DNA from: Deltaproteobacteria bacterium | Lineage (GTDB): Bacteria; Desulfobacterota; GWC2-55-46; UBA9637 | Direction: 5' to 3' | DNA length: 64,000 bases | Assembly (NCBI GenBank): GCA_016214995.1 | Contig: JACRML010000058.1 | Location: forward strand, 4,194-68,193 | Translations under genes and position numbers: made by a program | Part shown: piece after piece, positions 25,451 to 26,190 of the stretch | How the letters are laid out: each line of letters opens with the position of its first letter | Numbering within the stretch: the stretch's first letter is position 1 | The notes under the pieces: model-generated | The model's database searches: none | What the model saw: the letters and a program-made list of their open reading frames with translations, nothing else | What the model was told of the DNA's origin: nothing

Positions 25451-25553
25451 GCAACTGATTGAAGATATATGGCTATTGCTTGACTTGTGCCATGCAATTA
25501 GAGAAAACTTGTTAAATATATAGTTAGCCCGCTTCAGATGTTTCAAATATGCA

Positions 25554-26111
25554 ATGAGAGCCACTGACCCCATACGCACCAAGTTCCGCGAAGCCAAATA
25601 CCATTTGGAACGACTCACAGACATCGAGAAGATGAAGGAGTTTTACCCGACGGTAAATGCCTTTCTATCTGCTGCTCGAAGCGTCCTGTCGGTGGCGTGT
25701 CACGAATTGGGCTGGAAAGAAAGACTTTCTTGCTATCGTACAGGGTTTACGACAAATCAGGAAGGCGAACGCAAGCAATACGATGCATGGTTTGAATCAT
25801 CAACTGAGGCAAAGGCGGTTCTTGATCATCCACTTGCTAAAGAGCGGCACGTCGTCATTCACCGCAGTGGTCGAGCTGGTTTCTTCCATGTCCCGAAACC
25901 AATCGGTGGTTTGGCAATCGCCGAGGGAGATGCCCATGGTCCGGGTCTCGTTATTCGTAGAGGACGTGCAACACTTCCTCTCGAAGACAGCAATCTCTTC
26001 TTCTATGAAGACCCCTGTGGCACAAGGCATGGCGCAGTCGCATATTGCATGGAGTATTTCCAACTGATCGAAGCGTTCTTTCGCGAGGTGAAGCAACCAC
26101 CATGGCGATAA
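25554..26111 (+). CDS. Hypothetical protein (185 aa) on a compositionally atypical, cassette-like segment
   Basis: It is the longest coherent ORF in a G+C-richer stretch where 4-5 frames are open simultaneously. No motif was recognised. It is followed 14 nt later by an attC-like palindrome. Confidence 0.5.
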   Translation: MRATDPIRTKFREAKYHLERLTDIEKMKEFYPTVNAFLSAARSVLSVACHELGWKERLSCYRTGFTTNQEGERKQYDAWFESSTEAKAVLDHPLAKERHVVIHRSGRAGFFHVPKPIGGLAIAEGDAHGPGLVIRRGRATLPLEDSNLFFYEDPCGTRHGAVAYCMEYFQLIEAFFREVKQPPWR

Positions 26112-26124
26112 TCTGAGAAAGCGG

Positions 26125-26190
26125 GCTGACAACGGCGTGCAACAGACTGGCCTGCGGCCTCGGCCAGCCGCTGACGCCGACCGTTAGGAC
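26125..26190 (+). other. attC (59-be)-like imperfect palindrome
   Basis: It reads ..TGACAAC GGCGTGCAACAGACTGGCC TGCGGCCTC GGCCAGCCGCTGACGCCGACC GTTAGGA.. with AAC...GTT ends. Stems are AACGG/CCGTT, CGT/ACG, CAG/CTG and CTGGCC/GGCCAG, with unpaired bulges. The right core GTTAGGA is close to GTTRRRY. Confidence 0.4.

Follow-up and report, generated by a model that had tools for sequence, protein, structure and literature searches.

A lone integron gene cassette beside hgcAB in an uncultured Thermodesulfobacteriota genome, probably at the attI site of an integron that has lost its integrase

The window analysed here is a stretch of 64,000 nucleotides from an uncultured member of the Thermodesulfobacteriota, whose relatives are groundwater MAGs labelled 'Deltaproteobacteria bacterium'. 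The segment of interest lies between a gene for a FAD-dependent oxidoreductase and the convergent hgcB-hgcA pair, and contains the following features.

24005..25450, + strand: FAD-dependent oxidoreductase gene (Pfam Pyr_redox_2, GIDA, FAD-depend_C), the conserved left neighbour, on the cassette's strand
25451..25468, + strand: conserved 3' flank of the oxidoreductase gene (..CAACTGATTGAAGATATA), left edge of the variable segment
25469..25523, + strand: attI-like remnant TGGCTATTGCTTGACT...TAGAGAAAACTTGTTAAATATATAG, with GTTAAAT at 25511, identical in parts to contig C3 and to relative G001
25480..25485, + strand: -35-like hexamer TTGACT, conserved among attI copies and followed by a 9-nt deletion in the window
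25523..25529, + strand: crossover core GTTAGCC, recombination point between G25523 and T25524
25524..26183, + strand: very probable integron gene cassette, 660 nt, 52% GC, its ends set by the attI crossover and the attC R' box
25554..26111, + strand: cargo ORF, 185 aa, conserved protein family, function not assigned
26120..26192, + strand: attC site by covariance model R1, R'' GGCTGAC at 26124-26130, R' GTTAGGA at 26183-26189
26184..26215, + strand: 32-nt orphan stretch TTAGGACTTAGAGGAACGAGGGTAACAGGCCG, 3' of the crossover
26216..26304, no strand assigned: conserved, apparently non-coding block 3' of hgcB, right edge of the variable segment
26305..26607, - strand: hgcB (NCBIfam NF040864, 117.4 bits against a cut-off of 99), convergent with the cassette
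26592..27653, - strand: hgcA (NCBIfam NF040863, 400.2 bits against a cut-off of 275)

The oxidoreductase gene is syntenic in the relatives, with 82-95% amino acid identity, and its convergent layout with hgcB-hgcA is kept in them. Between these genes the relatives carry an interval, with GATTGAAGATATA as its left and TACTTTCTTGCC... as its right border, whose content differs in every genome: G001 carries a Fic gene and cassettes, G007 and G009 have an HTH-gene region there, and in G005 and G008 the contigs end. Indeed, the flank at 25451-25468 is common to the same-genus genome G001 (L057) and to GWF2_42_12 (L069), and each genome diverges right past it. No relative with an empty site was found for comparison; the interval is variable everywhere. 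The cassette adjoins hgcB because the region downstream of hgcB is the variable hotspot of this lineage, and a literature search on hgcA together with integrons returned nothing relevant.

Several further observations concern this interval. In the same-genus genome G003 (L054, 1735-2306) the place of the cassette is taken by a Phd/YefM-like antitoxin (88 aa) and a ParE/RelE-like toxin (94 aa), a pair named by eye from the sequences, and the interval has no attI and no attC. The block at 26216-26304, about 85 nt running from TACTTTCTTGCCATTACGAAATATATTGACC to CATAGTATTTGTCAGAAAATGCAAATGCATTTTCT with a perfect 10+10 palindrome at 26279-26300, is kept in G001, G003, G008 and partly in G005, and variable DNA starts directly beyond it. 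It looks non-coding because a stop codon breaks the sole frame reading through it in G003; conceivable roles are those of a terminator, operator, small RNA or former attachment site. Since hgcA is patchy in the genus (4 of 7 genomes) and hgcAB is missing from the 6 kb downstream of the gene in JACRNJ, the closest oxidoreductase relative (93% identity), the pair itself may lie in or beside the variable region.

The attC site was identified with a covariance model, R1, built on 15 attC sites from foreign arrays, none of them taken from the window. The R1 consensus comprises 20 pairs, 14 of them with compensatory changes, and displays the classical R box, an unpaired spacer and a bulged L box. 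Against the 64-kb window the model gave one match, at 26120-26192 on the + strand and over its full length (1-87), with 43.2 bits and E 2.1e-7, a score that may partly reflect shared ancestry as five of the 15 training sites come from homologous cassettes, while the other ten do not. Moreover, R1 also recovers unrelated attC sites of the host genome. No second attC appeared in the window at E up to 10, so that the cluster of at least two attC sites without integrase that defines a CALIN is not found here. Rfam, which holds no relevant family, returned chance matches only. As for folding, the palindrome taken as single-stranded DNA had z-scores of +0.40 (+ strand) and -1.25 (- strand) relative to shuffles, and folding energy alone would therefore not have confirmed it. 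A naive finder demanding R''/R' complementarity in the integrated form was also tried and discarded: it missed most real attC sites, because R' is a hybrid after integration.

Of the two conserved triplets, the GTT of R' is present at 26183-26185, but the R'' triplet is GAC, where AAC is invariant in all 15 training sites. The true R'' is GGCTGAC (26124-26130), as indicated by the R1 alignment and by the homologous cassettes, including L002, the closest homologue with flanks (76% identity in amino acids, 86% in nucleotides), whose GAGCTAAC aligns to GGGCTGAC of the window. The first-pass annotation had seen an imperfect palindrome with an AAC end and had proposed TGACAAC as the left R box. The palindrome is there after the stop codon, and is an attC by the model, but the AAC lies in the unpaired spacer and the R'' box 3 nt upstream of the proposed one. 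The single R'' substitution points to a unit that would be a cassette by descent and whose present mobility seems doubtful. In L002, L005 and L009, where the gene is alone in the chromosome, the downstream attC no longer scores at all; the window attC is comparatively fresh.

The limits of the cassette can be read from both of its sides. The identity to the attI of contig C3, described below, ends directly past the GTT of the core GTTAGCC, and the homology to the 76%-identical cassette of L002 begins at this same core, with GTTGGCCCGCTTCAGAT. The boundary has the form GTTRRRY cut after its G, here GTTAGCC, and is complementary to the cassette's own R'': the 5' end GTTAGCCCGCTT (25523-25534) is the reverse complement of the R'' region AAGCGGGCTGAC (26119-26130) at 11 of 12 positions, and the lone mismatch is precisely the change of the R'' triplet from AAC to GAC. 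The unit comprises one conserved ORF, on the + strand and co-oriented with the attC, and the promoter scan found no sigma-70-like promoter within the cassette or just upstream. The 32-nt stretch at 26184-26215 has no homology to any relative compared and is possibly the stump of a lost next cassette.

The composition of the unit is also distinct. Its GC content is 52.3% compared with a genome mean of 41.8% (sd 3.5%), a value reached by only 0.6% of the 661-nt windows of the genome, and it peaks at 55% within the ORF stretch; the other high-GC windows of the genome include the cassette regions adjoining both of its intI genes. The G+C-richer stretch described by the first-pass annotation is thus real, as are several of its other readings: the 185-aa ORF at 25554-26111 on the + strand, the stacked open frames (several other frames are open over the ORF stretch), the core-like GTTAAAT, GTTAGCC and GTTAGGA at 25511, 25523 and 26183-26189, and the hgcA and hgcB neighbours, which score above the cut-offs of both NCBIfam models.

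Where else are such cassettes found? Nearly all homologues with usable flanks belong to series of small ORFs that share one strand and are spaced by about 100 nt. As the first cassette, the homologue of L006 and L007 adjoins a divergent gene with Phage_int_SAM_4 and Phage_integrase domains, split into two ORFs and called an integron-type integrase by its Pfam domains only; six further small ORFs come after the homologue, each ending in an obvious attC. L010, L013, L014 and L015 are arrays as well. In the arrays each 5' boundary, GTTRRRY together with its extension, is reverse-complementary to the R'' region of the same cassette: GTTAGATCGCGC and GCGCGATCTAAC in L006, GTTGGACC and GGTCCAAC in L013, GTTAGACC and GGTCTAAC in L014, and GTTAGCC and GGCTAAC in L008. 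Such complementarity would be the expected signature of a unit that circularises and reintegrates between the G and the first T of its core.

Two of the homologous loci show peculiarities of their own. In L002 the homologue is likewise stranded in a chromosome, flanked by a MarR gene on one side and by molybdenum hydroxylase genes on the other. Upstream of it, at 5940-5979, lies a miniature attC-like site, GTTTAACAACGCGTTCCCGCGCGAACGTTGGCC, about 40 nt long and scoring 13.3 bits, which looks like an attC without its entire variable loop. In L009, a Gemmatimonadaceae MAG, a tandem GTTAGGAGTTAGAAAGAATC / GTTAGGGGTTAGAAAGAG found past the decayed attC (around 6600-6650) resembles the post-crossover GTTAGGACTTAGAGGAAC of the window (26183-26200). 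This likeness may be due to chance, as a core site followed by a ribosome-binding-like stretch, or may reflect a common start of the next cassette.

The protein itself belongs to a rare and well conserved family. A search of 5.8 billion clusters returned 16 homologues besides the window protein, and the 17-member set has 25 invariant columns; a profile search of 1.84 billion representatives gave 91 clusters at E up to 1e-3. The family is under purifying selection, the dN/dS ratio of the cargo gene being 0.07 relative to L017 and 0.42 relative to L002. The protein has no match in Pfam, NCBIfam, PADLOC or PHROGs, and 10 of its distant relatives have none in Pfam either. AlphaFold2 nevertheless models it with confidence (pLDDT 85.8, pTM 0.82) as an N-terminal helical bundle, a small beta-sheet and a C-terminal helix, a fold without match in the PDB (best E 0.76, TM <0.26) or in BFVD (best E 0.29), the query-normalised TM-scores being at most 0.30 over both searches. 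One may speculate that the conserved ERHxVIHRxGQAGF motif and the invariant Cys165 form a catalytic or metal-binding site. Nothing in these searches indicates a functional tie to mercury methylation.

The 185-aa gene is missing from all 40 relatives searched, from genus to class, and no syntenic relative thus carries the ORF without the palindrome, a pattern that the first-pass annotation had named as evidence against a cassette. Known members of the family include one from the Gemmatimonadaceae MAG and one from a short contig binned to Nitrososphaera. A GC content among the highest 0.6%, the lack of the gene in the 40 relatives and the occurrence of family members in such distant bins mark the cassette gene as foreign and strain-specific. 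The cassette on the Nitrososphaera-binned contig (L008, JBOGQL010000112.1) is 74% identical and has a canonical attC; at 1782 bp this contig is very short and may have been binned wrongly, whereas a correct binning would place a cassette of bacterial type in an archaeon.

Because the attC is model-positive, the 5' boundary is complementary to its own R'', cargo homologues occur in real arrays, and the composition is foreign with the gene absent from the 40 relatives, we read the unit as a bona fide cassette, in agreement with the first-pass annotation, which had proposed a captured integron cassette next to hgcAB; the attC model and the homology search, both of which it had named as checks, come out in its favour. 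One may still ask whether a mobile element needs to be invoked at all, since the fold z-scores are weak and the data come from MAG assemblies: an ordinary gene specific to the lineage, with a GC-rich hairpin or terminator behind it by chance, or else an assembly chimera, would then account for the locus. This seems to us hardly credible in view of the single covariance-model match (E 2e-7), the complementarity of the 12-nt ends, the homologues in arrays with canonical attC sites, the lack of a T-run 3' of the hairpin, and the same locus architecture in the independent assemblies of G001 and GWF2_42_12.

If the unit is a cassette, how did it come to stand alone? The left neighbour of the attI-like site is the oxidoreductase gene and not intI, and the 69-kb contig of the window (C11) has no match to the integron integrase model TIGR02249 (cut-off 265 bits), hence no adjacent divergent intI such as a complete integron has. 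The first-pass annotation was thus right in seeing no integrase on this contig, but the genome encodes two elsewhere, both without internal stops: one at C87:18781-19710 (415.8 bits) and one at C3:35354-36277 (364 bits). R1 finds an attC of 40.1 bits 1 kb from the C3 intI and a weaker one near the C87 intI. Among the relatives, intI is patchy.

A BLAST search of the region against the genome matched window positions 25496-25525 to C3:36813-36842, a place flanked in the C3 integron by intI on one side and the first cassette on the other. Over 25499-25525 (C3:36816-36842) the identity is 27/27, and this 27-mer, TAGAGAAAACTTGTTAAATATATAGTT, whose last three letters are the crossover GTT, has just two copies in the 1.98 Mb genome, on C3 and in the window; for the C87 integron no similar attI was found within 6 mismatches. 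As the genome is an 82.5%-complete MAG in 99 contigs, C3 and C11 could in principle stem from different strains in one bin. Immediately upstream, positions 25469-25495 are identical to the same locus of G001 (27/27), and in all about 55 nt of the window site can be aligned with C3, G001 and GWF2_42_12. The three-way alignment displays a common TTGCTTGACT...TAGAGAAAAYTTGWTAAATAKATWG followed by the TT of the crossover, with 9 nt deleted in the window only. As far as identity goes, the site at 25469-25523 would be an attI at the head of an array. Everything further toward intI is gone in the window, and accessory sites for integrase binding may have been lost with it. The promoter scan passes no + strand sigma-70 promoter at the window attI or at C3; the conserved TTGACT, which the 9-nt deletion follows in the window, may have a promoter role as part of Pc.

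Given the attI-like flank, we consider it quite improbable that the cassette was inserted by an integrase directly at a non-classical site (attG, consensus GWT) as a SALIN, with no integron remnant involved. This route is documented by experiment (Loot et al., bioRxiv 10.1101/2022.09.11.507474), the unit formally is a single attC without integrase on its contig, and further solitary ORF-plus-attC units are present on contigs C18, C42 and C95. However, the left flank is no arbitrary DNA: it is identical at 27 of 27 positions to the attI beside the C3 intI, about 55 nt of it are common to the same locus in two relatives, one of which has a truncated intI, and the units on C18, C42 and C95 have no attI motif. 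The secondary site that the first-pass annotation had envisaged is for the same reason not retained, as the flank is an attI copy from which the integrase would have been deleted.

The relatives provide the history of the site. In GWF2_42_12 (L069) the oxidoreductase gene is followed by a Fic-gene stump, the start of intI, attI, and a cassette with its attC; the intI start codon with about 35 nt and the intI-attI spacer are kept, 82% identical to C3. An integron was therefore once present at this locus and its integrase was lost by deletion. In G001 the same attI at the locus precedes different cassette-like ORFs and a weak attC, in a segment that reaches the conserved block by hgcB. The attI platform at the oxidoreductase-hgcB hotspot is thus found in at least three genomes, with different cassettes in each, and among these the window represents the most reduced form of the locus integron.

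These comparisons also bear on whether attI and cassette were recently copied or moved together from C3, by an integrase-mediated rearrangement or by ectopic recombination, with no ancestral integron at the locus. The 27-nt core exceeds in identity the attI region around it, for which roughly 82% is found between lineages, and this could result from a recent exchange or gene conversion. We nevertheless regard a copy from C3 as very improbable. Both G001 and GWF2_42_12 have attI at the same oxidoreductase-flanked locus, with different cassettes, and the latter has the intI stump as well, so that the integron at the locus predates these genomes. Furthermore, upstream of the 27-mer the window is closer to G001 (27/27) than to C3.

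Taken together, the unit at 25524-26183 is very probably a genuine integron gene cassette, with one 185-aa ORF and its attC, standing at the attI of a degraded integron whose intI was deleted. We propose that attI×attC recombination placed it at an attI between the oxidoreductase gene and hgcB, that this attI derives from an old chromosomal integron of this Thermodesulfobacteriota lineage, and that intI was since deleted here, leaving about 55 nt of attI, one cassette and the 32-nt stump. Because the C3 attI core is identical over 27 nt, the C3 IntI is the likely inserting enzyme, and it could still act on the site in trans. The GAC of R'' would place a C-A mismatch in the recombinogenic bottom strand, so that excision is probably lowered and the cassette may be stuck. 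As for its expression, no terminator or sigma-70 promoter is predicted between the oxidoreductase gene and the ORF, and we therefore suggest that the cassette is most likely expressed by read-through from this same-strand gene, 103 nt upstream. It is conceivable, though we think it unlikely, that the orphan attI by hgcB is a second working capture site served in trans by the C3 IntI, the two forming a 'split integron'.

The unit is of an already known kind, and constitutes a well-documented example rather than a new kind of element. It resembles the cassettes of sedentary chromosomal integrons, of which the Vibrio superintegron is the paradigm, in its single ORF without predicted internal promoter, in an attC with R box, unpaired spacer, bulged L box and variable loop, in its GTTRRRY boundary cut after the G and a 5' end complementary to its own R'', and in a cargo of foreign GC content without assigned function. 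It differs from them in its GAC R'' triplet, in the presence of one cassette only and in the lack of an adjacent integrase. With the C3 integron it shares the 27-nt attI core including the crossover GTT, the TTGCTTGACT element and the type of attC; in contrast, C3 has kept an intact intI and a perfect divergent TTGACA-17-TATAAT promoter pointing toward it, both lost at the window locus, which carries a different cassette.

Solitary attC sites and clusters of attC sites without integron integrase have been termed SALINs and CALINs, respectively (Loot et al., bioRxiv 10.1101/2022.09.11.507474; Néron et al. 2022, PMC9024848; Cury et al. 2016). With one attC and no intI on its contig, the unit would be called a SALIN by an automated finder; formally it is a SALIN in the terms of Loot et al. 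or a degraded integron in those of Cury et al. and Néron et al. What sets it apart from an attG-type SALIN is the attI copy in its flank, and together with the intI stump kept in a relative this makes it a traceable degraded integron. According to the literature, 95% of CALINs have no recognisable intI pseudogene nearby (cf. bioRxiv 10.1101/2022.09.11.507474), and surveys usually cannot tell the loss of the integrase from insertion at random genomic sites. The retention of attI with a traceable intI deletion is accordingly uncommon in surveys, yet it is the expected outcome of a known decay route, and the window locus offers a clean, traceable case in which a solitary cassette arose where the integrase was lost but the docking site kept. 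It also points to integron activity in an uncultured mercury-methylating lineage of the Thermodesulfobacteriota, with two intI genes and several solitary cassettes.

The other solitary ORF-plus-attC units of the genome have their attC sites at C18:21678-21742 (- strand, 45.3 bits), C42:814-869 (- strand, 32.7 bits) and C95:3750-3816 (+ strand, 29.7 bits). Their ORFs are of 107-200 aa and end at the attC on C18 and C42, and about 140 nt before it on C95. With no integrase nearby and without the attI 27-mer, these three units are candidates for the attG insertion route.
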